Counted from the first letter of the stretch, positions 7,967 through 32,964 are shown. The stretch: 45,608 bases of DNA from an uncultured Candidatus Saccharibacteria bacterium (GCA_964478705.1 CAYZIR010000007.1:1-45608); one strand, 5' to 3'. Notes: generated by a model from the letters alone, not told the origin. Translations and numbers: made by a program.

Positions 7967-8542
7967 TTACTTCCCCACTTGTTTGTAGCGGAAGCAAGAG
8001 ACAACATGGTCATTAACCATTCCCGTTGCTTGCATGTGCGCATAGATGGTCGTTGAGCCCAAGAATTTGAATCCACGCTTCTTCAAGTCTTTCGCGAGCG
8101 TGTCTGATTCTTTTGATGTCGGTTTGTAGTCTTTGAGTGCGCGGAGTTTGTTTACTTTTGGTTTCCCGCCAACAAAATTCCAGATGTATTTTGAAAATGT
8201 GCCGAATTCTTTTTGTACCTCAAGAAAACGCTCTGCGTTATTGATTACTGCTTCGATCTTTGCTCGATTGCGAATGATACCGGCATTCTTCAAAAGTTTT
8301 GCGACATCGCGCGCGGTAAACCTCGCTACTTTCTTCGGGTCGAACCCCGCGAAGGCTTTTCGGTAGTTCTCACGCTTTCGCAACACGGTAATCCACGAGA
8401 GTCCCGCCTGTGCACTCTCGAGCACTAAAAACTCGAAGATAGTTCGGTCATCATAGACCGGAGAACCCCACTCATGGTCGTGATACATCTCGTAGAGCGT
8501 GTCGCCCTCCTTCACCCACGGGCAACGTTTTTTAGTTTTCAT
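7967..8542 (-). CDS. tag: DNA-3-methyladenine glycosylase I
   Basis: CPWVKEGDTLYEMYHDHEWG..DDRTIFEFLVLESAQAGLSWITVLRKRENYRKAF is typical Tag. Confidence 0.92.
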   Translation of the reverse strand: MKTKKRCPWVKEGDTLYEMYHDHEWGSPVYDDRTIFEFLVLESAQAGLSWITVLRKRENYRKAFAGFDPKKVARFTARDVAKLLKNAGIIRNRAKIEAVINNAERFLEVQKEFGTFSKYIWNFVGGKPKVNKLRALKDYKPTSKESDTLAKDLKKRGFKFLGSTTIYAHMQATGMVNDHVVSCFRYKQVGK

Positions 8543-8554
8543 ATCAACATATTC

Positions 8555-9061
8555 TTAGTCATTCTTCAGACAATATTGCGCGGAGGAGACTTCTAAAACC
8601 ATAGGGCCATCGTACACGAGTTTACCATCATCAAAATCTTCTCCGACATACCCAATCGTTATATGTGGCAGGAACTTTAAACTAACACCATCAAGATGTG
8701 CAAACTGTTTCAAATCCTCATGAATTTTCGTAAGGTTGCCGTCATCTTTTACTTTCAGAAACATGATTTTTGCTCGGTGGTCAGGTAATGCAAAAAAGCC
8801 GACCCCACCAATCTCAACACAATCGATTGGATTAACTACAAGAAAATCTGATATGGCTGACTGATCTATATGTTCATGGTCAAAACCGTAGAACAAGGTT
8901 AGATGGAGTTTTTCGGTCATATTTCCACCTTCTCGCTTTCCATCAACAACTGCAAAAATAAACCTGTCAGCATATTGTTCTGCCCAAGCGATGATTTTTT
9001 GCTTTGCACTATCATCAAAATCAAGTGCTACGTATCCAATCTTATGTGGTTGTGTATTCAT
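8555..9061 (-). CDS. 2H phosphoesterase superfamily protein (LigT/cyclic phosphodiesterase-like)
   Basis: Two H-x-T/S-x motifs, HLTL and HITI, with appropriate spacing in a 168-aa protein. Confidence 0.65.
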   Translation of the reverse strand: MNTQPHKIGYVALDFDDSAKQKIIAWAEQYADRFIFAVVDGKREGGNMTEKLHLTLFYGFDHEHIDQSAISDFLVVNPIDCVEIGGVGFFALPDHRAKIMFLKVKDDGNLTKIHEDLKQFAHLDGVSLKFLPHITIGYVGEDFDDGKLVYDGPMVLEVSSAQYCLKND

Positions 9062-9066
9062 ATTTC

Positions 9067-9399
9067 TTAGCGGAATTCGTAGAGCTTGTCGGCAAAGTTT
9101 TTGATGCGATCGTCTTTGTCAATTTCTATACCCTCTTCTTTGTAGAGTTTCATGCGCTTCGCGCGATACTCATCATTCACCCAAATGTGTCCGTCAGCAT
9201 AGACGATTCGATGGAAGGGAATTGAGATTCCTTGATCCGCTGCCTTCGAGAGAATCGAGGTGATGCTTTGTGCCGCCATCGCTCCCCCGCCACACGCTTT
9301 TGAAATTCGGCCGTACGTTGTGACGCGCCCTTTCGGAATTTTCCTCGCTGCATCAATCACCCGCTCGCTGAATGTAGAGCCATGGAGTTCCTTTTTCAT
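9067..9399 (-). CDS. Alkyltransferase-like (ATL) protein: MGMT DNA-binding domain without the acceptor cysteine
   Basis: IPKGRVTTYGRISK...PFHRIV. The canonical PCHR active site reads PFHR, so Cys is replaced by Phe. Confidence 0.8.
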   Translation of the reverse strand: MKKELHGSTFSERVIDAARKIPKGRVTTYGRISKACGGGAMAAQSITSILSKAADQGISIPFHRIVYADGHIWVNDEYRAKRMKLYKEEGIEIDKDDRIKNFADKLYEFR

Positions 9400-9869
9400 G
9401 AAGTATGCGATGAATGCATAAGTATGCGTACGTGCTTGAGAAGTTCATCGAGTGTAGAGAATTGCAGGAATCCATACCTCTCCTGCACCACATCGATATT
9501 CCCCTTCTTCCAGAATCCATCGGGGCACACCACAAGCAGTTTTCCGCTCTGTGCATAGAGTCCTGTTTCGAGAAGTGATATAGGGGACTTCGTGTTTGGG
9601 TCAAAGTACATGATGATGTAATCACTTTTTGAGAGCGCATCAAGCTCCCATTCCACCTGCCCTCGAAAATCTTGGTTGTCTTTGCTTTGTTCCCACGAGT
9701 TGTCCCAGCGATCGCGCCGAGGGTTGAGGAGAAGCACATCTTCATCAGCTAACTGCTCTGCGATATATTTTTGCCATTCTTCCGCAACGCCCATCTCAAT
9801 ACTTCCGCCGAGAAATATTTTTATAGTCTTTATATCCGGAATTTCATGCGGGGCTTTTATTTCGATCAT
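9396..9869 (-). CDS. Nucleoside 2-deoxyribosyltransferase-like protein
   Basis: KIFLGGSI..EEWQ..LLNPRRD..WELDALSKSDYIIMYF..SPISLLETGLYA pattern of the NDT-like fold. Its stop overlaps the ATL start (ATGA). Confidence 0.7.
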   Translation of the reverse strand: MIEIKAPHEIPDIKTIKIFLGGSIEMGVAEEWQKYIAEQLADEDVLLLNPRRDRWDNSWEQSKDNQDFRGQVEWELDALSKSDYIIMYFDPNTKSPISLLETGLYAQSGKLLVVCPDGFWKKGNIDVVQERYGFLQFSTLDELLKHVRILMHSSHTS

Positions 9870-9952: not shown

Positions 9953-11302
9953 TTATACCGCGACCGGCAAACGAACAGGTACTTCCTGTTTGTCGAGAGC
10001 CGTCGGTCCGTACGAGATGATCGAGAGAGGAACACCGAGCTCCTCCTCAACCATCTGAAAGAACAATGAGTCTTCGTTCGGTATCGACTCGTAGAGAGGA
10101 GTCACCTTCTCCAAAAGGCGCGTGAGCGTCTCTTGAAACACCAAATCGGTGAGTTCAGTCTTCACTGGTAGTCGACTGATCAGCCCAACGTCGTCATGAC
10201 TGTAGCCCGTACACATCATCTTCTGCGAGAGCGTACGAAACCTATCCATGTTCGTCATCGCAATCTGATCGACGCCTCCACACACTTCAAGTGCATAGCG
10301 CGTGAGCACTGCATCCAACCACCCGAGACGGAACGCTCCTTGCCACTCCCCTGTGCCGTTGTGCATATCGGGGATGAGCGCGGTGAGTTCCTTACTCTCG
10401 GTTGGGAATGGGCCAGCGCCGTGGCGTGTCTGATAGGCACGAACAACACCGAGCCGAGTAACATCTCCTTCGAAGTTGATATCGCGAAGAATCTCAAGCG
10501 CATTCGCGAATGTCGTGGTGCTCCACGTGGTATGCGGATGAAATCCGTACCACTCATCCAAGAGTACACCTTGTGCACCTTCGAGGATGAGGTCACCTTC
10601 TTCGGCACGTCGCTTGAGGTAGGTATCTCCGACGATCGGGAATTGTTGAGAGATCTTCCACATCGCCTCTGCATATTCACTCGGTGCAGAGCTCTGCTCG
10701 AGAATATCGATCTCTTCCGCGATGTGCGGGAGATGTTTGATACCATCAAGCAAACCAGTGAACTCAGCGCGCTTCATTTCTTGAACTTCAGAGAGAAGAC
10801 GAGCGAGTCGTTTTGGGTCACGGAGATCTGCTCCAACCACCTTGAGGTCGGGTCGCACAATTGAATCGTGGGTCGTTTCTCCGATTCCCATACCACAACT
10901 GCCATGCCTGGCGTTCCCGCGAAGCGCTTCCCTGAGTCGGTTTGCGGACTTCTGAAAACGCGTCACCACAAGCGCTTGCTCATGGAGCGAAAACCGGCTG
11001 TACACATTGCCACAACCAAGCTCTCGCAAATGACGAGCTTCCGGCTCAATCGCGAGCGGGTCGAAGAGCGAGAATCGAGAGATGTGCGTTTTCACACCTT
11101 GCACGAACGTTCCGCTCCCAAATTGCGCGAAGGTGTGATGCCGTCCATCAGGAGTAATGACGTTGTGCGCCGCCTGACCGCCTCCGTTGAATCGGACGAC
11201 GGTCGAAACGGACTTGTTCCGAGCAAGGTAGTCGACGATCGATCCCTTGCCCGCATCGCCAAAACCAAGATCGACAACGATTGTTGCATTCCGTTTTGAC
11301 AC
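9953..11302 (-). CDS. Divergent adenylosuccinate synthetase (PurA) family protein
   Basis: VVDLGFGDAGKGSIVDYL, GGGQAAHN, LEGAQG, TRHGAGPFPTE, GWLD and SYGP match the PurA signature order. Start set to GTG 11302, preceded by GGAGG. The TTG at 11359 would place a terminator hairpin inside the CDS. Confidence 0.85.
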   Translation of the reverse strand: MSKRNATIVVDLGFGDAGKGSIVDYLARNKSVSTVVRFNGGGQAAHNVITPDGRHHTFAQFGSGTFVQGVKTHISRFSLFDPLAIEPEARHLRELGCGNVYSRFSLHEQALVVTRFQKSANRLREALRGNARHGSCGMGIGETTHDSIVRPDLKVVGADLRDPKRLARLLSEVQEMKRAEFTGLLDGIKHLPHIAEEIDILEQSSAPSEYAEAMWKISQQFPIVGDTYLKRRAEEGDLILEGAQGVLLDEWYGFHPHTTWSTTTFANALEILRDINFEGDVTRLGVVRAYQTRHGAGPFPTESKELTALIPDMHNGTGEWQGAFRLGWLDAVLTRYALEVCGGVDQIAMTNMDRFRTLSQKMMCTGYSHDDVGLISRLPVKTELTDLVFQETLTRLLEKVTPLYESIPNEDSLFFQMVEEELGVPLSIISYGPTALDKQEVPVRLPVAV

Positions 11303-11315
11303 GCCGTGCCTCCGT

Positions 11316-11350
11316 GGAAAAGAAAAGCCGGGCTCTGTGGAGAGCCCGGC
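11316..11350 (-). terminator. Strong intrinsic terminator between the vWA gene and the PurA-like gene
   Basis: GCCGGGCTCT(11327-11336)/AGAGCCCGGC(11341-11350), a perfect 10-bp stem with a 4-nt loop. The minus strand continues TTTTCTTTTCC. Confidence 0.65.
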
Positions 11351-11364
11351 GGATTGCAATTCGA

Positions 11365-12381
11365 TTAGATCCGAGAAACTCCAGAACTACCAGCACCGAC
11401 GCCACCAGGAAGCGTTCCCGTTGCTACGTGTGCAGGCATCCGTGACTTTGCGACGGTTGCGAGCGCATTCGAAACGGATGTCCGCGCTCCACCACGCAAG
11501 TCGAGATCGTCCGCGACCATCACGAGATCCTTCGCGGTCTCGAGCATGTGGATGACACCAGCGATTGTCTCACAGACGAGATCGGCGTCGTCGAGAAGTA
11601 GAAGCCGTTCGCCGAGGAGATGGCGCCAGTTCTTCTGCACCCGTGGTTCACTGCCGTGTGCGGTGTTGCCCGAGAGGCAGATGTGGTAAATCTCCCATCG
11701 TTCGGACGCGCGAGCGATGAGATCCTTCACGGATTCGTCACTCGTCGCTTCGATGCCGAAAATATCCTGCACCTGACACTTCGTGACCGTCGGCCACGTC
11801 ATCTCGTCACCCATGGTGAAGAGATAGCCCTTCTTGCCACGCTTCTCGAACGAGTCGGTTGCGGTGTGATGTGCTGCGAATCGATACGCGAGAGCGTAGG
11901 ATTCGTGCACTTGCCCGCCACCACCACCTTCGAGGATGATGTTGCGGAGGGCCTCGTCGAACCGGTTGTCCGATTCGAACTGCCCGACTTGGAATGGATA
12001 CTGGTCGCACGTCGCATCGCCGATTGCACCGACGAGGACTTGCGGGTCCTTGATGCCGGTTTTGGCGAGAACGACGTCCATCAGCTTCGTCAACTTCTGC
12101 TGAAGCGTTCGTGGAACACTTCCCATCGATCCCGTGACGTCGAAGAAAACGGCGATCGGAAGCGATTCGGGATGCTCATCGCTATCCCTGCTCTCCCGAA
12201 CGTTCTGCCCTGCGAGCGGGCTCGTCGGCCCTGCGACGGTCTTCGGGTCGAGACTCGGATGAATTCCACTTGCCCGACCCGCCTTGACGTCTCTGTCGTG
12301 TTCGAAATCGTCGACACCACGTGTGCGACGATCCTCCCTGGCACGACTGTACGAACTCGAATCCCATCTACCGCCACCCAT
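11365..12381 (-). CDS. von Willebrand factor A (vWA) domain protein with a MIDAS-like motif and a disordered Arg/Asp-rich N-terminus
   Basis: IAVFFDVTGSMGS (D-x-T-x-S), then GAIGDATCD and LFTMGDEM downstream. AAGGAG RBS 8 nt upstream of ATG 12381. Confidence 0.8.
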   Translation of the reverse strand: MGGGRWDSSSYSRAREDRRTRGVDDFEHDRDVKAGRASGIHPSLDPKTVAGPTSPLAGQNVRESRDSDEHPESLPIAVFFDVTGSMGSVPRTLQQKLTKLMDVVLAKTGIKDPQVLVGAIGDATCDQYPFQVGQFESDNRFDEALRNIILEGGGGGQVHESYALAYRFAAHHTATDSFEKRGKKGYLFTMGDEMTWPTVTKCQVQDIFGIEATSDESVKDLIARASERWEIYHICLSGNTAHGSEPRVQKNWRHLLGERLLLLDDADLVCETIAGVIHMLETAKDLVMVADDLDLRGGARTSVSNALATVAKSRMPAHVATGTLPGGVGAGSSGVSRI

Positions 12382-12408
12382 GATAGCGCTCCTTTTTGTG
12401 ACCCGTCG

Positions 12409-13581
12409 TTAGCTCTGCATGGGAAGCGGGCGATAGCCACGCCCCCATTCCTTCCTGATGACACGGGTAAATTCATCAAGAAGTTCTTGCCCTGTTTGGA
12501 AACGCTCTCCACGAGAGTCTTTGACCGTACGAAGAACAACTGCACTGACCGACGAGGGCACTGCCGAGGGAATCGTGTTGGTTGCTGTGTTCCCGCCAAG
12601 AAGAGCGATCATCATTTTTCCAGCCATAAAAAGGTCGGTGCGACGATCGGGTTCTTCTTTTCTCAGCACCTCTTTCGGGTAGAAATCCTTCCACCGATCT
12701 ATGACATGCATCACTCGAAGATGCGAATGCGTCGGATCCTCGATCGCGTGAGCCCATCCAATGTGAAGTGGCTCGCGCTTTATTGGATCGACAAGAACGT
12801 GATCCGGTGTAATCGCCGAATGGACGACACCAGCCATATCAGCGGCAATCGTTTGCGCGATGATACGACGGAATATCCACCCCGCATGCTCAGGATCGAC
12901 CCCCTTCGGATATGCGCGCATGATGTCTGCGACCGATACAAGACCGTCGACATACGCGAGCACGTTGACCGCGTAGCGCGTTCCGTTCGGGCCGTTCATG
13001 AAGAACGACTCAACGAGCTTTGGAACAAACTGTGCGATTTTCGAAAGAGGATCGGACGCTCCTGCATCTCTGAAGCGCGAAAGAATCTTTGCCTCAGATG
13101 CAAGCCATCCATTGAACGACGGTTGTGACGATACTTTCACAAGCACCTCGCCTCCCGTCCCACCGATGACCTTCGCGCGATAAATCACGGAGAAGTCGCC
13201 GGTTTTGTATGGCGTTGAGAAGAGGTGATACGTGTGAAGTGGTGATGTGATTTCGGACACCGATTGTTTCGGAGAGCCTTTCGACGAAGCATTAGAAAAC
13301 GCTCCGGCGGTAAAAGGCTTTCCATAGGTTCCTACATTGATTGCTCGTTCAGCCGCATGACGGATGTCAGTAAGCTGACGAAACACATCTGCAGCTTCTA
13401 CTGCAAGGTGCTTCTCGACGTGATCGGGATGCACCATGAGTACAAGTTGTCTGAATTGCCGTCGCAGAGCACTCTGTTGCTTCGAGATTGCGCCGTCCGG
13501 CAATGTGCCGAAGATGCTGATGAAGCTCGTTGCCACACGAAGTTGTCTACCGACGCTTTCGAGGGTATCTGCTCCGGACAT
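12409..13581 (-). CDS. J-domain (HPD) fused to a protein-kinase-like domain with degenerate catalytic motifs (predicted pseudokinase)
   Basis: LRRQFRQLVLMVHPDHV...FRQLTDIRHAAERAI is J-domain helix II-HPD-helix III. Kinase-like features are TGDFSVIYRA, VLVKV, EAKIL, VVHSAITPDHVLV (HRD Asp becomes Ala), HIGWA in place of DFG, FYPKEV and TDLFMAGKMMIALLGG. AGGAGG RBS 9 nt upstream. Confidence 0.8.
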   Translation of the reverse strand: MSGADTLESVGRQLRVATSFISIFGTLPDGAISKQQSALRRQFRQLVLMVHPDHVEKHLAVEAADVFRQLTDIRHAAERAINVGTYGKPFTAGAFSNASSKGSPKQSVSEITSPLHTYHLFSTPYKTGDFSVIYRAKVIGGTGGEVLVKVSSQPSFNGWLASEAKILSRFRDAGASDPLSKIAQFVPKLVESFFMNGPNGTRYAVNVLAYVDGLVSVADIMRAYPKGVDPEHAGWIFRRIIAQTIAADMAGVVHSAITPDHVLVDPIKREPLHIGWAHAIEDPTHSHLRVMHVIDRWKDFYPKEVLRKEEPDRRTDLFMAGKMMIALLGGNTATNTIPSAVPSSVSAVVLRTVKDSRGERFQTGQELLDEFTRVIRKEWGRGYRPLPMQS

Positions 13582-13670
13582 AGCTCTCTGCCTCCTGTGG
13601 TTCTATGAAGTAGTGAAGCGCGAGTGTCCTCGCATCCTCTACGTTGACAAAGAACACGATACTCTAATTT

Positions 13671-13691
13671 GAAGTGTCTTTAATACACTAA
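13671..13691. promoter_or_regulatory. NrtR-type box A (GAAGTGT-N7-ACACTAA) in the 5' UTR region of the J-domain operon
   Basis: Matches the 21-bp palindrome TTAGTGT-N7-ACACTAA at 12 of 14 half-site positions. Confidence 0.5.
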
Positions 13692-13736: not shown

Positions 13737-13765
13737 AGACTACTCTTCCTCTTACTTAGTGTCAA
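13737..13765 (-). promoter_or_regulatory. Candidate promoter of the J-domain/vWA operon (TTGACA-17-TAGTCT)
   Basis: The -35 TTGACA (rc of 13760-13765) lies inside box B. The -10 TAGTCT is the rc of 13737-13742. Confidence 0.45.
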
Positions 13766-13776
13766 TAGTACACAAT
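13756..13776. promoter_or_regulatory. NrtR-type box B (TTAGTGT-CAATAGT-ACACAAT)
   Basis: Left half is perfect and the right half matches 5 of 7. It overlaps the -35 of the minus-strand promoter. It forms an 18-bp inverted repeat (one mismatch) with 13792-13809. Confidence 0.55.
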
Positions 13777-13788
13777 ATGTACTGTGTA

Positions 13789-13809
13789 TAAGTGTAGTAT
13801 TGACACTAA
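13789..13809. promoter_or_regulatory. NrtR-type box C (TAAGTGT-AGTATTG-ACACTAA)
   Basis: 13 of 14 half-site matches. It overlaps the -35 TTGACA of the nrtR promoter. Confidence 0.55.
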
Positions 13810-13836: not shown

Positions 13837-14535
13837 ATGAAACACCCAATCCCCTCACAAGCCCCCGACCACCTGCGCTTTGCTGTGCTTGCCTGCGATG
13901 TGGCGATCTTTACCATTAAAGACAACACACTCTACGTACGCACCGTTACTGTTAACCGCCCTCCGAGTTTCATTAATAGCCGAGGACTTCCTGGTGGACT
14001 CCTCCTCCCCCACGAGACAGCCGAAGAAGCAGCACTTCGTCATATCACCGAAAAGGCATTGATCAGCACAAAAAAAATATACATGGAACAGCTCTACACA
14101 TTTAGTAGAGTTGATCGTGATCCTCGTGGACGCGTCGTTGCTGTGGCATACCTCTGCCTCGTGCCATGGGAGTCTCTTTCCGCAATCGAACAATCCGATA
14201 CTGACGGCGCTCGTTGGATGCCAGTTTCTGATGCAAAGAAACTCGCATACGATCATGACGAGATACTCTCGGTTGCGGTCAATCGTCTTCGCTCACGCAT
14301 AACGTACACAACACTCATCAGCAAACTCATCCCAGTAGAATTCACGCTCTCTGACCTCGAACGTGCGTACGCATCAATCCTCGCAACCACGCTCGACAAA
14401 CGAAACTTCCGAAAAAAAGTTGAAAAACTCAAAATACTCACGGAACTTCCGTACAAACGGACCGGTGGAGCCTTTCGACCAGCGGCGCTCTACAAGTTCG
14501 CTTCGAATAAAGTCAAAGAAATCGAGATTCTCTAA
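13837..14535 (+). CDS. nrtR: NrtR-family Nudix-related transcriptional regulator of NAD metabolism
   Basis: N-terminal Nudix fold with a degenerate Nudix box (GGLLLPHETAEEAALRHITEKALI). C-terminal wHTH region (YDHDEILSVAVNRLRSRITYTTL..LDKRNFRKKV). 232 aa, adjacent to nadM/Nampt. Confidence 0.88.
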   Translation: MKHPIPSQAPDHLRFAVLACDVAIFTIKDNTLYVRTVTVNRPPSFINSRGLPGGLLLPHETAEEAALRHITEKALISTKKIYMEQLYTFSRVDRDPRGRVVAVAYLCLVPWESLSAIEQSDTDGARWMPVSDAKKLAYDHDEILSVAVNRLRSRITYTTLISKLIPVEFTLSDLERAYASILATTLDKRNFRKKVEKLKILTELPYKRTGGAFRPAALYKFASNKVKEIEIL

Positions 14536-14569: not shown

Positions 14570-14589
14570 GCTATCCACAGATACCGTTG

Positions 14590-14618
14590 TTGACAATCGA
14601 ATGCTTATTGTATAAGAT
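14590..14618 (+). promoter_or_regulatory. Candidate nadM promoter (TTGACA then TATAAG at 15 nt or TAAGAT at 17 nt)
   Basis: TTGACA at 14590-14595. The -10 candidates at 14611-14618 are overlapped by NrtR-type box E. Confidence 0.5.
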
Positions 14619-14625
14619 ACACTTA
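14605..14625. promoter_or_regulatory. NrtR-type box E (TTATTGT-ATAAGAT-ACACTTA)
   Basis: 12 of 14 half-site matches. It overlaps the -10 region of the nadM promoter. Confidence 0.45.
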
Positions 14626-14662
14626 GTATGGGGTTGGGAAGACATATATTTTTTACCTTCAG

Positions 14663-14683
14663 TTAGTGTAATAAATACATTAT
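14663..14683. promoter_or_regulatory. NrtR-type box D (TTAGTGT-AATAAAT-ACATTAT)
   Basis: Left half is perfect and the right half matches 5 of 7. It lies between the promoter and the nadM RBS. Confidence 0.45.
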
Positions 14684-14724
14684 CTACCCTCTCCGCCATG
14701 TTCTTTGACAAGGAGAAAATACAC

Positions 14725-15633
14725 ATGCAACCAGAAACCATCGGAGTTATCGTCGCTCGGTTTCAGGTTCCCTGCCTCCACAAAGGGCATCGGTATCTGA
14801 TCAACTACGTGAACTCGCGCTGTGAGAAGCTCGTCATCGTTCTCGGTACGCCACGGTCCTTCCCTACCAAGAAGAACCCTCTGTCATTCGAGATGCGACG
14901 AGTAATGATTGCGCGACAGTATCCGAATGCGATCATCGCGTCGCTTCCCGATACCAAGCTCGACGCGCAGTGGAGCACCGCACTTGATGCTGTCATCGCC
15001 TCCGCTCTGTGCGGAAAGGTTGACGGCATACAAGTGACGCTCTACGGGTCGCGCGATTCCTTCATTACGCACTACAGTGGTGTGCATCAGACCGAACTCG
15101 TTCCCCCTCTGGGCAACGTGAACGGCACGAAGCACCGCGAACGCCTCGCAGATGTCGCCGACTCGGTGAAATTCCGCGAAGGCATCATTCACACACAGAT
15201 GAGCCGTCCGCCGATCGTCTACCCGACGGTCGACGTGGCCATCATCCGCGCTGAAACCGGAGAAGTACTCCTCGGCGGAAAAGCGTGTGACGGCGGAAAG
15301 CTCCGCTTCATCGGAGGCTTCGTCGATCCGACAAAGGATGCCTCGTATGCAGACGCCGGAAAGCGCGAAGCATTCGAGGAAACCAACGGTATGGAAATCG
15401 CCGACCTGAAACAAATCGGCTCGGCCAAGATCGATGACTGGCGATATCGTGGCACGGAAGACTGTGTCATAACGTCATTCTTCATCGCTACGTACGTATT
15501 CGGGGCTCTCACGCCAAGTGACGACCTCGACTATCTCACGTGGATCCCTGTTCTGCAGGTCATGGAACACCTCGTTCCTGAGCACGAGCCATTGGGGCAC
15601 ATGCTCATCTCGCATTTCAACCAGACACTCTGA
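14725..15633 (+). CDS. nadM: Bifunctional NMN adenylyltransferase (NadM-type) / Nudix hydrolase
   Basis: IGVIVARFQVPCLHKGHRYL carries the nucleotidyltransferase HxGH motif. The C-terminal Nudix box is GGFVDPTKDASYADAGKREAFEETNG. AAGGAG RBS 9 nt before ATG 14725. The 14587 TTG extension is rejected. Confidence 0.88.
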   Translation: MQPETIGVIVARFQVPCLHKGHRYLINYVNSRCEKLVIVLGTPRSFPTKKNPLSFEMRRVMIARQYPNAIIASLPDTKLDAQWSTALDAVIASALCGKVDGIQVTLYGSRDSFITHYSGVHQTELVPPLGNVNGTKHRERLADVADSVKFREGIIHTQMSRPPIVYPTVDVAIIRAETGEVLLGGKACDGGKLRFIGGFVDPTKDASYADAGKREAFEETNGMEIADLKQIGSAKIDDWRYRGTEDCVITSFFIATYVFGALTPSDDLDYLTWIPVLQVMEHLVPEHEPLGHMLISHFNQTL

Positions 15634-15644
15634 AGGAGAGTGCT

Positions 15645-17048
15645 ATGAACGCGAACATGGAAATCGGCAACACCATCACCCGCACCGACAGCTACAAGGT
15701 CACGCATCACCTGCAGTACCCCGGAAAGACGGAGATCCTTTTTTCCTTCTTCGAGAGTCGCGGTGGCGATTTCCCCACGGTCACCTTCTACGGCCTCCAG
15801 TATTACCTCAAGCGGTATCTCGAGGGCGTTGTGGTCACCGAGAAGATGTTGCCGAAGGCCCGTCGGCGCTTCGCCGCGCACTTCGGATCCACCAAGCTCT
15901 TCAATGAACAGGCGTGGCAGAGAATCATCGATGTGCACGGTGGCAAGTTGCCCATCCGCATCAAGGCGGTTCCCGAGGGGACGACCATCCCCACGAGCAA
16001 CGTGTTGATGACGGTCGAAAACACCGATCCTGAGATTCCGTGGGTCACGAACTACGTTGAGACACTTCTCTCGATGTTGTGGTATCCGTCGACGGTGGCA
16101 ACCCAGAGCCGTGCGATGCGGAAGCTCGTTCTCTCCTTCCTAGAAGAGACTGGCGATCCGTCACTCATCGACTTCAAGGTTCACGATTTCGGATTCCGTG
16201 GCTCGACTTCGGTCGAATCCGCGGGAATCGGTGGCTCGGCTCATCTCGTTTCCTTCAAGGGAACGGACACACTGGTTGCGCTCGACATCGCTGAGGATTA
16301 CTACGGAGAAGAGTGTGCGGGATTTTCCATCCCCGCCGCTGAGCACTCCACGATCACTTCGTGGGGCAGAGCTCGAGAGGTGGACGCCTATGAGAACATG
16401 CTCACGGCGTTCCCGACCGGCCTCGTTGCGGTGGTTTCCGACAGCTACGACATCTTCCGCGCCTGCAGTGAACTCTGGGGCAAGGAACTTCGTGACAAGG
16501 TTCTCAATCGCGATGGTGTCTTGGTGGTTCGTCCTGACAGTGGATACCCGCCGGACGTGGTCGTGAAGGTGCTCGATATTCTCGGCAACGCCTTCGGCTA
16601 CAGCATCAACGGCAAGGGCTACAAGGTCTTGAACCCGAAGGTGCGCGTCATCCAGGGCGATGGCATCGACTTCTCGATGCTTCGCCGAGTACTCGAAGCG
16701 ATGAAACAGCACGGCTGGTCGGCCGACAACGTCGCGTTCGGTTCCGGTGGTGGCCTTCTGCAGAAGCTGAACCGCGATACCTTGAAGTTCGCGTTCAAAG
16801 CCTGTGCAGTCCGCATCGAAGATCTCTGGCACGACGACATCATGAAGGACCCGGTGACGGATCATTCCAAGCGTTCGAAGGCTGGTCGTCTCGTCCTCGT
16901 CAAGGATGACAAGGAATGGAAGACCGTGCGCGAAGAGGAAGCGATGCGTGCAGGGCTCAACAACGAGCTCGTCACGGTTTTCGAGAATGGTGAAGTCCTT
17001 GTGGACTACACGTTCAGCGAGATCCGCGAACGAGCGCTCGTCGGCTGA
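15645..17048 (+). CDS. nadV: Nicotinamide phosphoribosyltransferase (Nampt/NadV)
   Basis: TDSYKVTHHLQYP, HDFGFRGSTS and VVSDSYD are classical Nampt motifs. 467 aa. Confidence 0.93.
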   Translation: MNANMEIGNTITRTDSYKVTHHLQYPGKTEILFSFFESRGGDFPTVTFYGLQYYLKRYLEGVVVTEKMLPKARRRFAAHFGSTKLFNEQAWQRIIDVHGGKLPIRIKAVPEGTTIPTSNVLMTVENTDPEIPWVTNYVETLLSMLWYPSTVATQSRAMRKLVLSFLEETGDPSLIDFKVHDFGFRGSTSVESAGIGGSAHLVSFKGTDTLVALDIAEDYYGEECAGFSIPAAEHSTITSWGRAREVDAYENMLTAFPTGLVAVVSDSYDIFRACSELWGKELRDKVLNRDGVLVVRPDSGYPPDVVVKVLDILGNAFGYSINGKGYKVLNPKVRVIQGDGIDFSMLRRVLEAMKQHGWSADNVAFGSGGGLLQKLNRDTLKFAFKACAVRIEDLWHDDIMKDPVTDHSKRSKAGRLVLVKDDKEWKTVREEEAMRAGLNNELVTVFENGEVLVDYTFSEIRERALVG

Positions 17049-19869: not shown

Positions 19870-19944
19870 GGCCCCATCGTCTAGCCTGGCCTAGGACGTC
19901 GCCTTCTCAAGGCGAAAACTCGGGTTCGAATCCCGATGGGGTCA
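19870..19944 (+). tRNA. tRNA-Glu (anticodon CUC)
   Basis: Cloverleaf: acceptor GGCCCCA/TGGGGTC, 3-bp D stem GTC/GAC, anticodon stem TCGCC/GGCGA with loop TTCTCAA, T arm TCGGG-TTCGAAT-CCCGA, discriminator A. CCA is not fully encoded. Confidence 0.9.
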
Positions 19945-19956
19945 CCGTCAACAGCG

Positions 19957-21520
19957 CACACGAGAAGAATGTATAAAGTATGAAGAAAATAAATTTTATA
20001 CAATCTGAAACTGGTATAGGTATGGAACTAGAGCTTAGTTCCAACCTTGTTATTGTTGGGGCTAATGGTTCAGGTAAATCAAGATTTGGTTCTACCCTTG
20101 AAAAAAATAACCCTCATTCTAAAAGAATATCTGCCCAAAGATATCTACAACTTCAAGAAAACGTTCAGAAGCAAGATTTTGAAAGTGCTGAAAACAGTCT
20201 TAAATCAGTTTTCAAAAACCAATCTGTAATCACTCCTCAAAATGATTTTCAACAAGCACTCATTACTCTTTTTGCTGAAGAGGGTAAAAGAGATGCTGAA
20301 TATGTTGCCCAGGCAAAATTAAGTGGTAAAACCAAACTAGAAATACCTCAGTCAAAAAAAGAACAAGTACTTGATGTTTGGAGCTTTGTTTTTCCTAACA
20401 GGTTGTTAAAACTTGAAAAAGATAGAATCAAAGGCGTAAGTGATACCAATGAATTTTCTGGCTCAGAATTAAGTGATGGAGAAAGAGTTGGTTTGTATCT
20501 TATCTCTCAAGTATTACTTGCTCCCCAAGATTGTCTACTTATCATAGACGAGCCGGAAATACACTTACATAAATCTTTAATGACGAGATTGTGGAATAAG
20601 CTGGAAAATGTAAGAAGTGATTGTACTTTTATTTACATTACACACGATCTAGATTTTGCAGTCTCAAAGTCTGCTTCAAAAACAATATGGATTGAGTGGT
20701 ATAAGGACTTAAAGTGGAAATGGACAGAGATTAGCTCTGCTGAATACATACCTGACAACTTGCTCCTAGAAGTTCTTGGTAGTAGAAATCCAATTTTATT
20801 TGTTGAGGGAGATAAGGGCAGTTTAGATCAACAACTATACCAGTCTTACTATGAACATTTTACTGTCATACCAAGAGGTAGTTGTGAGAAGGTTATTGAA
20901 GCAGTCAAGGGTCTCAATGATAACCAATCATTGCATCACAATAAGGCTTTTGGCTTAATTGACCGAGATTATAGGATTGAGGCAGAAATAACTACACTCA
21001 AGAGCAAAAATATATTTACTACTCCGACCAAACATATTGAAAATATATTTTTGTTTCCTGAAATTATTGGAATAGTTGCGGAATATCTTTCTCAAAAAGA
21101 AAAGAAAGACATAATAATTACTGAAATAAAAGAGGAGTTTAAGTCCCAACTAGAAAATATTAACTTTTCAATTAAAAAAACGAGATTGTTAAGTTATCTA
21201 GCAAGAGAAGCTGGCCAGATAAAAGATGAAGCTTCTCTGGTAAATTTTAAGTCTAGATTATCAAGTGGGATTGATACTTTCCTTGGTACCATTACACCTG
21301 TTGTTGAAACTGAAGATATCTTAGAGATCTTAAAACTATACCCTCACAAAGGTTTAGTTTCTAAAGCCCAATCTCAATTAGGAATAAAAGATAATTTATA
21401 TCAAAACATTGTTCTTAGTTTTCTAACATCTCAAAAGAGAAAAGAATTAACGGAAATACTTAAAAAGTATTTACCTGATATATCTTAAGTGTAGTTGAAT
21501 TATTATAGTCACACGAGAAG
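19957..21520 (+). mobile_element. AT-rich single-gene insertion bounded by 11-bp direct repeats CACACGAGAAG
   Basis: Repeats at 19957-19967 and 21510-21520 bracket the 19980..21488 gene exactly. A sampled 60-nt stretch is ~28% GC against 42-55% in the flanks. It sits 13 nt after the tRNA-Glu. Confidence 0.55.
19980..21488 (+). CDS. ABC-type ATPase fused to a DUF4435/TOPRIM-like domain (OLD/PARIS-like defence candidate)
   Basis: Walker A GANGSGKS, signature-like LSDGER, Walker B LLIIDEPEIHLH and H-loop ITHD. The C-terminal part has ILFVEGDKGSLD...GLIDRDYR (E...DxD Toprim-like). Confidence 0.8.
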   Translation: MKKINFIQSETGIGMELELSSNLVIVGANGSGKSRFGSTLEKNNPHSKRISAQRYLQLQENVQKQDFESAENSLKSVFKNQSVITPQNDFQQALITLFAEEGKRDAEYVAQAKLSGKTKLEIPQSKKEQVLDVWSFVFPNRLLKLEKDRIKGVSDTNEFSGSELSDGERVGLYLISQVLLAPQDCLLIIDEPEIHLHKSLMTRLWNKLENVRSDCTFIYITHDLDFAVSKSASKTIWIEWYKDLKWKWTEISSAEYIPDNLLLEVLGSRNPILFVEGDKGSLDQQLYQSYYEHFTVIPRGSCEKVIEAVKGLNDNQSLHHNKAFGLIDRDYRIEAEITTLKSKNIFTTPTKHIENIFLFPEIIGIVAEYLSQKEKKDIIITEIKEEFKSQLENINFSIKKTRLLSYLAREAGQIKDEASLVNFKSRLSSGIDTFLGTITPVVETEDILEILKLYPHKGLVSKAQSQLGIKDNLYQNIVLSFLTSQKRKELTEILKKYLPDIS

Positions 21521-31106: not shown

Positions 31107-31931
31107 TTATTCCGTCCTGTCGTCCTTGTCTCCTCTCGTCCTTATCAAAACCTCGCGTGCTTCAAAGAGGTTGATCGGCAGAATCGCGCGCACGGTTTGG
31201 AACGAATCAGTATCATGCGTTGTGACCTCTTTGACGAATCCGAGCACGCCATGACCTTCGCCAGAAAGCATGAGTGCTGCTTCTTTCTCTACGGCGATAT
31301 CTTTTGGAATACTGAGCTCGAATGCACCTCCGCCAACACCTGTTGCCGTGAAGAGCGCCGTGCTCGTTCCACTGACAGAGACGTGCGTTTCAACTCCAGG
31401 TGATGAGAAGAGCCGAACGCGCGCAGCGTGGGGACTCACGCTTTCGACCGTACCGAGCATGAGTGTGATGTCGAACCACGCCTCATCCCCCACCGCGATT
31501 CCATCGCTTGATCCCGCATCAATGAGTACAACATCGTACGGTGATCGAGATGGTGCAGCGATGATACGTGCAAGCACTCCCGCGGTGCTTGTTGAACGGC
31601 CAAAACGATCATACAGCCGATCTCGTTCTGCCTTCAATTCTTCATAAAGCGCTGCGCGAAGCGTGAGACGGATATTTTCTTCGCGCAGCGCATCGTTTTC
31701 TGCTTCAAGCTCGCGCTTGCTCGTAAGACGCGTACCCACGCCGTCAGCACTGTCGGTGATCGCTGCGCTTGCGCTGAACATCCCACCCGATGCTTCAAGA
31801 AAAAGAACATCGAGCCAATGCGGCTGGATGATAGCGATAAGAAGCGCCGCGAATACCGCAAGCGCTGTCGCAAGATATGATGGACGGAATGTCCGATGTC
31901 TACGCGGTTGGAGGAAGCGCATGTTCTTCAT
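31107..31931 (-). CDS. mreC: Rod shape-determining protein MreC
   Basis: N-terminal TM segment, coiled coil (LEAENDALREENIRL) and beta-barrel C-terminal domains. Confidence 0.85.
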   Translation of the reverse strand: MKNMRFLQPRRHRTFRPSYLATALAVFAALLIAIIQPHWLDVLFLEASGGMFSASAAITDSADGVGTRLTSKRELEAENDALREENIRLTLRAALYEELKAERDRLYDRFGRSTSTAGVLARIIAAPSRSPYDVVLIDAGSSDGIAVGDEAWFDITLMLGTVESVSPHAARVRLFSSPGVETHVSVSGTSTALFTATGVGGGAFELSIPKDIAVEKEAALMLSGEGHGVLGFVKEVTTHDTDSFQTVRAILPINLFEAREVLIRTRGDKDDRTE

Positions 31932-32964
31932 CTACGATGATGTCACGATAGCGCTCGGTCTCTTCGACGACAAGACCGGTTCCACGAGCAACAGCAGTGA
32001 GCGGATCATCCGCAATATAGACAGGGACTTTGAGCCACTCAGAAAGAAACACATCGAGACCGCGGATCAACGCACCACCACCGACAAGATAGATGCCGCG
32101 GCGCATCACATCAGAGACCACTTCGGGCGGCGTGGTTTCGAGAACCTCTTTGATCGATTCAACAAGCGTGTCGATCGATGTCGCGAGTGCCTCACGAACA
32201 TCGGCATCGGTCACCACAACCTCACGCGGAAGGCCGGTAATAAGGTCTCGACCACGGATGGTCACCTCGATAGGCTTTTCTTCAGCCAAAATAGCCCCTG
32301 CGGTCATTTTGAGGTCCTCGGCAGTACGCTCACCAATGAGGATCTTAAATTCGTCACGGACGTAGCTGATAATGTCGGAATTGAAGCGATCACCAGCAAT
32401 CTTGATGTTCTTGCCATTGACCACACCGGAAAGCGAGATGACGGTGATATCGGTCGTACCGCCACCGATGTCGACGATCATACTGCCGCTCGCATCGTCG
32501 ATTGGAAGGCGGATACCAAGCGCGGCTGCCATTGGTTGCTCAACAATGTATGTTTCGCGTGCACCAGCGTTTCGAGCTGCGTCACGCACCGCGCGGCGCT
32601 CGACGTTGGTTGTTCCAAACGGTACGCCAATCACGACGCGCGGACCAAGAATCTTTTTGCTATCACCTTGTGCACGGCGTACGAGATGCGCGAGAAACTC
32701 TTCAGTGACTTCAAAGTCAGAGATCACACCGCCTTCGAGCGGACGAATCGCTGCGATATGCTCAGGTGTGCGTCCAAGCATTCGCTTTGCTTCGTTGCCT
32801 ACCGCAACCACTTGTCCGGTCTTGTTGTTGACCGCAACAACCGTTGGTTCGTTGATGATGATGCCGCGGCCGCGAACATAGACGAGTGTATTGGCGGTAC
32901 CAAGATCAACGCCGATATCGTCAGAGACAAAGCTCTGAAGTTTTTGCTTCAGTTTTTCCCACAT
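31900..32964 (-). CDS. mreB: Rod shape-determining protein MreB
   Basis: DIGVDLGTANTLVY, MIVDIGGGTTD and GIYLVGGGALIRGLD actin-fold motifs. Confidence 0.95.
   Translation of the reverse strand: MWEKLKQKLQSFVSDDIGVDLGTANTLVYVRGRGIIINEPTVVAVNNKTGQVVAVGNEAKRMLGRTPEHIAAIRPLEGGVISDFEVTEEFLAHLVRRAQGDSKKILGPRVVIGVPFGTTNVERRAVRDAARNAGARETYIVEQPMAAALGIRLPIDDASGSMIVDIGGGTTDITVISLSGVVNGKNIKIAGDRFNSDIISYVRDEFKILIGERTAEDLKMTAGAILAEEKPIEVTIRGRDLITGLPREVVVTDADVREALATSIDTLVESIKEVLETTPPEVVSDVMRRGIYLVGGGALIRGLDVFLSEWLKVPVYIADDPLTAVARGTGLVVEETERYRDIIVDEEHALPPTA

Follow-up and report, generated by a model that had tools for sequence, protein, structure and literature searches.

The 45,608-nucleotide (nt) stretch of DNA considered here (the window; GCA_964478705.1 CAYZIR010000007.1:1-45608, from an uncultured Candidatus Saccharibacteria bacterium) carries on its minus strand three consecutive genes. 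In positions of the whole stretch, they encode a 390-residue fusion of a J domain to a kinase-like domain (12409-13581), a 338-residue von Willebrand factor A (vWA) protein (11365-12381) and an enzyme resembling adenylosuccinate synthetase (AdSS), or PurA (9953-11302). An earlier note had paired the first two genes in an operon closed by a terminator, and the features it listed are all in place on the minus strand: both open reading frames (ORFs), the AGGAGG ribosome-binding site of the fusion gene (13591-13596, 9 nt before the ATG), the AAGGAG of the vWA gene (12389-12394) within the 27-nt spacer that follows the fusion gene, the HPD, HSAITPDH, IGW and DVTGS motifs, and a 10-bp hairpin. Our analysis places this pair in a larger unit, a three-gene cassette that recurs in bacterial genomes, on megaplasmids and in large phages and that appears to be under NrtR-type control. 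We consider this assignment of cassette and regulon very probably correct.

The hairpin lies between the vWA and AdSS-like genes at 11317-11350 or, by a narrower count, 11327-11350 (minus strand), its GC-rich 10-bp stem formed by the arms GCCGGGCTCT and AGAGCCCGGC and followed by the T-tract TTTTCTTTTC. Although the hairpin itself is as the earlier note described it, the unit does not end there: the AdSS-like gene, with a GGAGG at 11309-11313 and a likely GTG start at 11302, begins about 15 nt past the T-tract, so close that there is no space for a promoter between them. A TTG start at 11359, given by the ORF lister, was rejected in favour of this GTG because it overlaps the hairpin. Nine other Patescibacteria loci (L001, L005-L011 and L014) have a hairpin and T-tail at the equivalent site, each with an unrelated stem sequence. 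The position of the hairpin is thus kept across the Patescibacteria, which argues that it is an attenuator within the cassette and not the end of the system, and the differing stems at a kept position suggest that attenuation of the enzyme gene has been selected.

A vWA-seeded search of one genome per GTDB species returned 80 loci, whose ORFs were scanned with hidden Markov models. These loci span Patescibacteria, Actinomycetota (Nocardia, Nocardioides, Mycobacterium, Williamsia, Kutzneria and Streptomycetaceae), Chloroflexota, Planctomycetota, Myxococcota (Labilithrix) and Proteobacteria. In about 75 of the 80 the AdSS-like gene is next to the vWA gene, and the J-pseudokinase is present in 47; apart from these two, only NrtR-like genes recur as neighbours of the vWA gene in the bacterial loci. 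When distant J-kinase homologues (26-30% identity) served as seeds, the order J-kinase, vWA, AdSS-like came back each time, and the vWA gene is next door in all six J-kinase-seeded loci, the window included, so that the two genes of the original pairing are indeed neighbours elsewhere. With genomic and viral loci taken together, however, about 94% have the AdSS-like gene linked to the vWA gene, a closer tie than that of the J-kinase gene (roughly 60%), and Nocardia carries vWA/AdSS-like pairs that have no J-kinase. The idea of a two-component unit therefore has to give way to that of a triad. Gene order varies from locus to locus, yet the three genes stay together (L074, L102 and L118), and stop/start overlaps between them, pointing to translational coupling (for example in L068, L088, L094, L103 and L109), would agree with formation of a complex.

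These neighbourhoods bear on the view that the J-pseudokinase and the vWA protein act as a stand-alone pair, in which the metal ion-dependent adhesion site (MIDAS) of the vWA protein captures an external ligand and passes it to DnaK through the J domain, the neighbouring genes being irrelevant. Such a scheme would make good use of the conserved HPD and MIDAS-like site, and it would be natural for a terminator-like hairpin to follow the pair, as one does, with conservation in Patescibacteria. It sits poorly with a vWA gene that is tied more closely to the AdSS-like gene than to its supposed partner, with shifts in gene order that leave all three genes together, and with the lack of promoter space between the hairpin and the start of the enzyme gene. 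Of the explanations weighed here, we regard it as the least probable.

The cassette is also carried by megaplasmids of Rhodococcus, Tsukamurella, Agrobacterium and Acetobacter. In the two annotated regions read, those of Tsukamurella and Acetobacter, it is labelled "hypothetical, hypothetical, adenylosuccinate synthetase", and a NUDIX gene follows it in Tsukamurella only. In 23 loci, of which 22 are from Nocardia and one is from a Saccharibacteria metagenome-assembled genome (L008), a gene for a ~530-residue ABC-F ribosomal-protection-like ATPase recurs in the neighbourhood of the cassette; it sits ~1-4 kb upstream of the vWA gene (the Nocardia loci lie within L028-L077). We considered the ABC-F protein as an alternative upstream partner in Nocardia and set it aside, judging the arrangement to be lineage synteny. 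The other upstream ORFs at the Nocardia loci had no Pfam match.

The first protein of the cassette consists of a J domain (residues ~30-88) and a kinase-like domain (residues ~105-385). Its match to the Pfam DnaJ profile is below threshold (E = 0.0028; 18 bits against 27.8), and the Pfam scan of the 390-residue protein returned no kinase match. A family profile built from 49 homologues, by contrast, matches at least 20 solved J domains in the PDB at E-values of 1e-6 to 1e-4 and kinases at about 1e-7, the pseudokinase STRADalpha coming first and SRPK and PknB also among them. The AlphaFold2 model (pLDDT 93, with helices 32-50 and 57-83 above 90) has the expected folds; in Foldseek it is matched best by the DNAJB1-PKA chimera 4wb7 and next by PknA/PknB, the latter with a TM-score of 0.76. 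The J domain proposed in the earlier note is thus borne out by profile and structure comparison, if not by Pfam, and the HPD tripeptide (H51-P52-D53; 13423-13431, minus strand) falls between its helices II and III. An exhaustive profile search (E < 1e-30) puts the family at no fewer than 1445 clusters at 50% identity (at least that many), nearly all of them full length at 350-400 residues.

Residue conservation, counted in 143 family representatives, separates what this protein has kept from what it has lost. The HPD is well conserved (H in 134, P in 115 and D in 136), as are the VAIK lysine (K149; 138/143) and the alphaC glutamate (E163; 142/143). The position of the HRD aspartate, on the other hand, is occupied by Ala in 125 representatives, Ser in 11, Gly in six and Asn in one, and by Asp in none, while the Mg-binding Asn is replaced by His in 126. 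In the window protein the catalytic loop reads HSAITPDH where HRDLKPxN is expected (12799-12822, minus strand) and IGW stands at the DFG position (12754-12762, minus strand); the DFG Asp has been lost in the window's clade, and at this position the representatives have D in 87 cases and G in 50, G being the residue of the window protein. A bilobal kinase fold is therefore evident from the model and the Lys-Glu pair, but the catalytic Asp, the Asn and the DFG Asp are missing. "J-domain pseudokinase" is a sound description, because the fold matches, the HPD is kept and the HRD Asp never is, and the prediction of a catalytically dead kinase, made from the window alone, holds across the family. 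The retained Lys-Glu pair means that the pseudokinase may still bind nucleotide, and coupling to DnaK is a reasonable inference from the conserved HPD. There is no DnaK gene near any cassette examined, the sole match in the window being an MreB-like ORF (31900-32964), so a host DnaK would have to serve in trans.

Like eukaryotic GAK/auxilin and the oncogenic DNAJB1-PRKACA fusion, the protein combines a J domain with a kinase fold in a single chain. It shares no homology with them beyond the two domains, and whereas those kinases are active, this one is predicted to be dead and belongs to a bacterial and phage operon. PADLOC returned matches to the PD-T4-6 profile (E = 4e-10), confined to the kinase C-lobe, and to Mad6 as well. 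We rejected membership of these groups of defence kinases, since the match is one of generic C-lobe similarity and the catalytic Asp is missing.

The vWA protein has no match in Pfam, NCBIfam, PADLOC or PDB sequences, and its fold was revealed by structure only. The AlphaFold2 model (pLDDT 85, pTM 0.85) is of the expected type and retrieves integrin I domains, vWF A3 and the Ku80 vWA domain in Foldseek (E of 1e-5 to 1e-4, TMt ~0.6). Its MIDAS-like motif, DVTGS (D81-V-T83-G-S85; 12127-12141, minus strand), is invariant in the family alignment and is a DxTxS variant of the usual DxSxS; T173, D176 and D192, likewise invariant, are candidate ligands. Across 140 bacterial and phage sequences, FDVTGSM reaches 90% conservation or more, and the family as a whole, with more than 7500 homologues, is unusually conserved (59% mean column identity); its PHROG counterpart, phrog_2971, is of unknown function. 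The vWA fold and the MIDAS-like motif noted earlier therefore stand, but the N-terminus is not disordered as was supposed: its first 60 residues are highly conserved and partly helical in the model, and it is the C-terminal tail (residues 315-338) that is modelled with low confidence. The extreme N-terminus (codons 1-5, 12367-12381) is nearly invariant, with M1-G2, a residue of [GST] at position 4, an aromatic residue at 6 and Y/F at 11. The Met-Gly start is found in all 124 vWA sequences aligned there and in 13 of 16 others (137/140), and the N-terminal pattern is kept even in phage copies with just 35-40% overall identity.

The product of the third gene has a full-length match to Pfam PF00709 (Adenylsucc_synt; E = 1.7e-67) and scores only 190 bits against an NCBIfam purA cut-off of 402. 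Ninety-four family members were aligned to E. coli PurA, whose numbering is used here. D13, K16, H41, Q224 and D333 are kept; N38 has become Q in 93 of the 94 and T129 C in 84, S240 is W in 90 and V273 H in all, T300 is W or Y, T301 is Q in 93, R303 is deleted in every member, and R305 is replaced by F or another hydrophobic residue. In the E. coli enzyme T301, R303 and R305 bind L-aspartate, and N38 and T129 bind the phosphate of inosine monophosphate (IMP). The alignment thus identifies the third gene as encoding a divergent AdSS-like enzyme that retains the GTP and catalytic residues and in which the aspartate pocket has been replaced. Such an enzyme would be expected to use GTP to activate a 6-oxopurine-type acceptor and to couple it to an amine other than aspartate, probably a hydrophobic or aromatic one. 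With canonical PurA and phage PurZ it shares the fold, the P-loop GDxGKG, Asp13, His41, Gln224 and the guanine-specifying Asp333; it differs from them in the loss of Thr301, Arg303 and Arg305 and in the near-invariant changes N38Q, T129C, S240W and V273H. Identity with PurZ, the enzyme of Z-genomes, was rejected (51 bits against a cut-off of 300, and the Asp site lost), and the PHROG label "2-aminooxy adenylosuccinate synthetase" carried by the family is a misnomer and uninformative.

It might still be argued that the third gene is simply the organism's own PurA, in a housekeeping role, and that the proteins encoded upstream are unrelated or lineage-specific accessories. RefSeq does label the homologues adenylosuccinate synthetase, the Pfam match runs the full length of the protein, and in one Kaiserbacteria locus PurH and IMPDH are neighbours. 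An ordinary PurA, however, would not be expected to score under half the NCBIfam purA cut-off or to have its aspartate-binding residues (T301, R303 and R305) and part of its IMP-phosphate pocket replaced in all 94 members. The family is also found on plasmids and in genomes of Nocardia, Mycobacterium-related organisms and Streptomycetaceae, which presumably already possess a canonical purA, and it is borne by phages. We therefore rejected ordinary PurA identity for the third gene and hold the housekeeping account as a whole to be improbable.

Divergent from the cassette, on the plus strand, is a gene (13837-14535) for an NrtR-like repressor composed of a degenerate Nudix domain and an NrtR winged helix (Pfam NrtR_WHD 1e-19, NUDIX 1.8e-10, with a degenerate Nudix box); against the NCBIfam profile for the ADP-ribose-responsive repressor it reaches 2.8e-35, below the cut-off (122 vs 400). 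The same divergon continues with the NAD salvage genes nadM-Nudix (likely start near 14725) and nadV/NAMPT (14587-17048, plus strand). NrtR operators are described as ~21-bp palindromes with a GT-N7-AC core, from which ADP-ribose releases NrtR (PMC2330246). The window contains four exact GTGT-N7-ACAC boxes, three of which fall within the 255-nt divergent intergenic region: one, AGTGT-N7-ACACT, lies at 13674-13688, 93 nt upstream of the J-pseudokinase ATG, and the other two (13759-13773 and 13792-13806) overlap the TTGACA/TATAGT promoter of nrtR. Boxes with one mismatch occur at 14608 and 14666, before nadM.

The placement of these boxes is not peculiar to the window. Related loci totalling 1.24 Mb contain 54 exact boxes, of which 34 fall between -250 and +60 of a J-kinase start, giving a density of 2.4/kb at J-kinase 5' ends against 0.016/kb elsewhere (~145-fold); Chloroflexota loci with no nearby nrtR are among those with such boxes. 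Outside the window, 20 loci have boxes upstream of their J-kinase genes, and in Nocardia and Kutzneria GTTTTAGT-N7-ACTAAAAC lies between a TTGAC box and the vWA start. NrtR-type operators thus precede the cassette in Patescibacteria, Chloroflexota and Actinomycetota, and an NrtR-like Nudix homologue adjoins it in ~58 of 82 loci. Since the predicted operators match the motif type, the cassette is likely to be under NrtR-type control. Genes of NAD metabolism accompany it elsewhere: a 416-kb viral contig (L102) has, in this order, NrtR, vWA, NadM, NAMPT, AdSS-like and J-kinase genes, a NadE fusion is directly upstream of the cassette in a Saccharibacteria locus (L080), NADAR is a neighbour in L144 and L145, and there are sporadic cases of NAMPT fragments and of ADP-ribosylglycohydrolase. 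The triad is missing from the genes named as belonging to NrtR regulons in the part of Rodionov 2008 consulted (PMC2330246); it shares with those regulons and with NAD salvage (nadV-nadM, phage NARP2) the GT-N7-AC boxes, the adjacent nrtR-like gene and nadV/nadM beside it or interleaved. Table 1 of the same paper records an uncharacterised NrtR-regulated operon, 'nrtX-nrtY', in Streptomyces, Kineococcus, Frankia, Proteus mirabilis and Hahella. This may or may not be our cassette; we found no later paper using the names nrtX-nrtY.

The cassette is carried by phages as well as by cells. The vWA protein matches 220 phage records, of which 201 are mycobacteriophages and the remainder include Rhizobium and Vibrio phages. 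The mycobacteriophages listed have Bxz1-like (subcluster C1) genomes of ~150-160 kb, and the triad is present in ~200 of them under the annotation "Ser/Thr kinase, hypothetical, PurA-like". In MoMoMixon, for example, it corresponds to gp256 ("Ser/Thr kinase"), gp257 ("hypothetical") and gp259 ("PurA-like"); the alignment of gp256 with the J-pseudokinase family runs over its whole length (hhalign 100%), and gp256 carries VHPD and HGAITPDN. We scanned 57 viral loci, made up of 54 IMG/VR contigs (mostly 100-437 kb) and three phage records. An adjacent AdSS-like gene is present in 54 of the 57 and the J-kinase in 39, with 18 having the vWA and AdSS-like genes and no J-kinase, and no other conserved gene was found around the triad genes in these loci. 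All three proteins have PHROG families, labelled "kinase", "unknown function" and, wrongly, AdSS. In a subset of the C1 phages (Quasimodo, Yassified, Pinkcreek and others) the vWA match ends at residue 189, and in Quasimodo and Yassified an HNH endonuclease is annotated where it ends; the vWA gene of some C1 phages may thus be split by a homing endonuclease.

That lytic phages conserve the complete triad disfavours a role in anti-phage defence or abortive infection. In such a system the vWA protein would sense a phage protein, the J-pseudokinase would transduce the signal and the PurA-like enzyme would be the effector, depleting GTP or IMP or making a toxic or signalling nucleotide, with NrtR repressing the operon until ADP-ribose appears. 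The patchy spread of the cassette over phyla and megaplasmids, suggestive of horizontal transfer, its GC content above that of its surroundings and the similarity of its kinase lobe to the defence kinases PD-T4-6 and Mad6 are all what one might look for in a defence system, and a Nudix transcription factor with a vWA protein is a theme proposed for conflict systems centred on ADP-ribosylglycohydrolase (ARG) (PMC9503650). But the triad is maintained in ~200 lytic Bxz1-like mycobacteriophages and in many jumbo-phage contigs, its neighbours are genes of NAD salvage and biosynthesis in place of defence islands, PADLOC has no model for the vWA protein, and that protein, at 59% mean column identity, is very conserved, unlike fast-evolving sensors. 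We thus think a defence function unlikely.

The ARG-centred systems, which counter ADP-ribose in a comparative-genomics proposal by Iyer, Burroughs and Aravind (2022; PMC9503650), combine Nudix/WYL regulators with vWA 'chaperones'. They resemble the cassette in having a Nudix-wHTH repressor with a vWA protein in an ADP-ribose context and in phyletic range (Actinobacteria, Planctomycetes and Proteobacteria), and differ in that neither an AdSS-like enzyme nor a J domain nor a kinase is mentioned in the paper. We rejected membership because ADP-ribosylglycohydrolase is rare at the cassette, occurring in only three distinct loci of ~80.

The comparisons show a mobile triad with NrtR-type operators and an association with NAD genes, in which the HPD is intact although the kinase is dead and the cassette encodes no DnaK. 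We tentatively propose, at a little under an even chance, that the vWA protein and the J-pseudokinase are the non-catalytic partners of the PurA-like enzyme, together serving as an adaptor or activase that recruits DnaK to it, in a module of NAD and adenine-nucleotide metabolism that responds to ADP-ribose. The cassette would be switched on while NAD is being broken down, because ADP-ribose frees the DNA from NrtR. The PurA-like enzyme would then use GTP to activate a 6-oxopurine-type nucleotide and join it to a non-aspartate amine, and the MIDAS site of the vWA protein would hold the enzyme or its substrate; the 'captured ligand' envisaged in the earlier note is more likely to be the co-encoded enzyme than an external signal. 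The vWA protein would be the obligate partner of the enzyme and the J-pseudokinase a facultative third subunit, its pseudokinase domain (Lys-Glu pair intact, catalytic Asp gone) serving as a nucleotide-binding scaffold on the vWA protein and its J domain recruiting host DnaK to assemble, activate or reset the complex. The most likely physiological role would be to restore adenine or pyridine nucleotide pools during NAD depletion, which would serve cells and also phages or epibionts facing NAD-depleting immunity.

The closest functional parallel would be the MoxR AAA+/vWA activase pairs, namely CbbQ-CbbO, NorQ-NorD, CoxD-CoxE and RavA-ViaA. There, as we propose here from gene content, a vWA/MIDAS adaptor encoded beside the enzyme it serves works with an ATP-driven chaperone. 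The difference is that no MoxR gene is adjacent to the present cassettes: the link to a chaperone would be the J domain on the pseudokinase, with DnaK acting in trans, and the client would have an AdSS fold. The module would thus be a DnaK-driven counterpart of the MoxR-vWA activases, with Hsp70 as the motor. The earlier note had drawn a comparison with the TerY-P triad, which consists of the vWA protein TerY, a Ser/Thr kinase and a PP2C phosphatase. Both have genes for a vWA protein and a Hanks-type kinase fold side by side, but the likeness goes no further: no phosphatase family is found among the conserved neighbours of the cassettes and no PP2C gene in or near any of them, the kinase lacks the catalytic Asp throughout its family and has a J domain, and the third gene is AdSS-like.

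Several observations weigh against this adaptor model. The association of the three proteins is drawn from gene neighbourhoods and separate models of the monomers, and the hairpin between the vWA and enzyme genes in Patescibacteria argues against simple 1:1:1 co-expression. About 40% of cassettes have no J-pseudokinase, which must therefore be dispensable for the core function, and near the vWA gene of a few Planctomycetota loci there is no AdSS-like gene, the neighbours being unrelated WD40/PSCyt1 proteins. NrtR and NAD genes are missing from the surroundings of most phage copies. An AdSS fold suggests no obvious NAD-related reaction. Finally, the pseudokinase could be an atypical enzyme that works through other residues.

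The near-invariant start of the vWA protein invites a different explanation for its bond with the enzyme, in which the N-terminal glycine takes the place of aspartate as the amine and the product is an N6-peptidyl-AMP read by the dead kinase pocket. Protein-nucleotide conjugation of this kind would make sense of the Met-Gly start in 137 of 140 sequences and of the aromatic positions 6 and 11, found even in divergent phage copies, as well as of an Asp pocket rebuilt from aromatic and hydrophobic residues, the almost strict co-occurrence of the vWA and AdSS-like genes and the nucleotide-binding Lys-Glu pair of the pseudokinase. It is nonetheless pure inference: AdSS-fold enzymes offer no precedent for protein substrates, the N-terminal segment may be merely structural, and the MIDAS site is left with no role. 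We rate it as very improbable. The fuller version, in which the enzyme makes no free metabolite but puts a C6-linked purine nucleotide on the vWA glycine, with a protein N6-adenylate-type adduct read by the dead kinase pocket and a complex then passed to DnaK, we rate slightly lower again; were it true, it would represent a new protein-nucleotide conjugation switch, common to bacteria and large phages and controlled by NAD stress.

Our search found no named or characterised system for the J-pseudokinase/vWA pair and no published description of the triad, the closest being PMC9503650 and the 'nrtX-nrtY' entry in the part of PMC2330246 consulted. The NAD reconstitution pathways were also considered as a match for the triad and set aside: NARP3 consists of PnuC and NadR, and NARP1 and NARP2, as summarised in the abstracts consulted, use other enzymes. 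On our reading the cassette would encode a chaperone-linked vWA adaptor serving a dedicated enzyme. The triad is one of the more widespread uncharacterised modules common to bacteria, megaplasmids and large phages, and one that current annotation hides. If the adaptor model is correct, a vWA adaptor tied to DnaK through a J-domain pseudokinase would link Hsp70 to a dedicated client in a novel manner. An AdSS fold with a replaced aspartate pocket implies chemistry so far undescribed for that fold. NrtR-type control and the interleaving with nadV/nadM would make the module part of the struggle for NAD that hosts wage with phages or epibionts, a field in which new reconstitution pathways (NARP1, NARP2 and NARP3) are still emerging. 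The module should be experimentally tractable in Mycobacterium smegmatis with Bxz1-like phages.

As for its setting, the window is cellular chromosome, encoding DnaE, ThrRS, a Mur ligase, penicillin-binding proteins and a class II aminoacyl-tRNA synthetase (Asp/Lys/Asn-type), and it is most closely related to Patescibacteria, Kaiserbacteria and Kerfeldbacteria being examples. The triad (9953-13581) has a GC content of 0.53-0.59 and nadM/nadV (14725-17048) one of 0.56-0.58, against a window mean of 0.487, and the raised values would fit acquisition by transfer. Directly downstream of the cassette, four co-directional genes (7967-9869) encode a PF15891 nucleoside 2-deoxyribosyltransferase-like protein, an MGMT-type protein with the DNA-binding domain only, a 2H phosphoesterase (2'-5' RNA ligase superfamily) and a Tag methyladenine glycosylase; the adjacency of this nucleotide/repair cluster to the cassette is not kept elsewhere. 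Further along, a low-GC island (19870-21488; GC 0.33 against 0.49) follows directly on tRNA-Glu(CTC) and encodes a 502-residue AAA_21/ABC-type ATPase fused to DUF4435. This protein, which we take to resemble OLD- or PARIS-like proteins, is a candidate defence gene product at a putative tRNA integration site.

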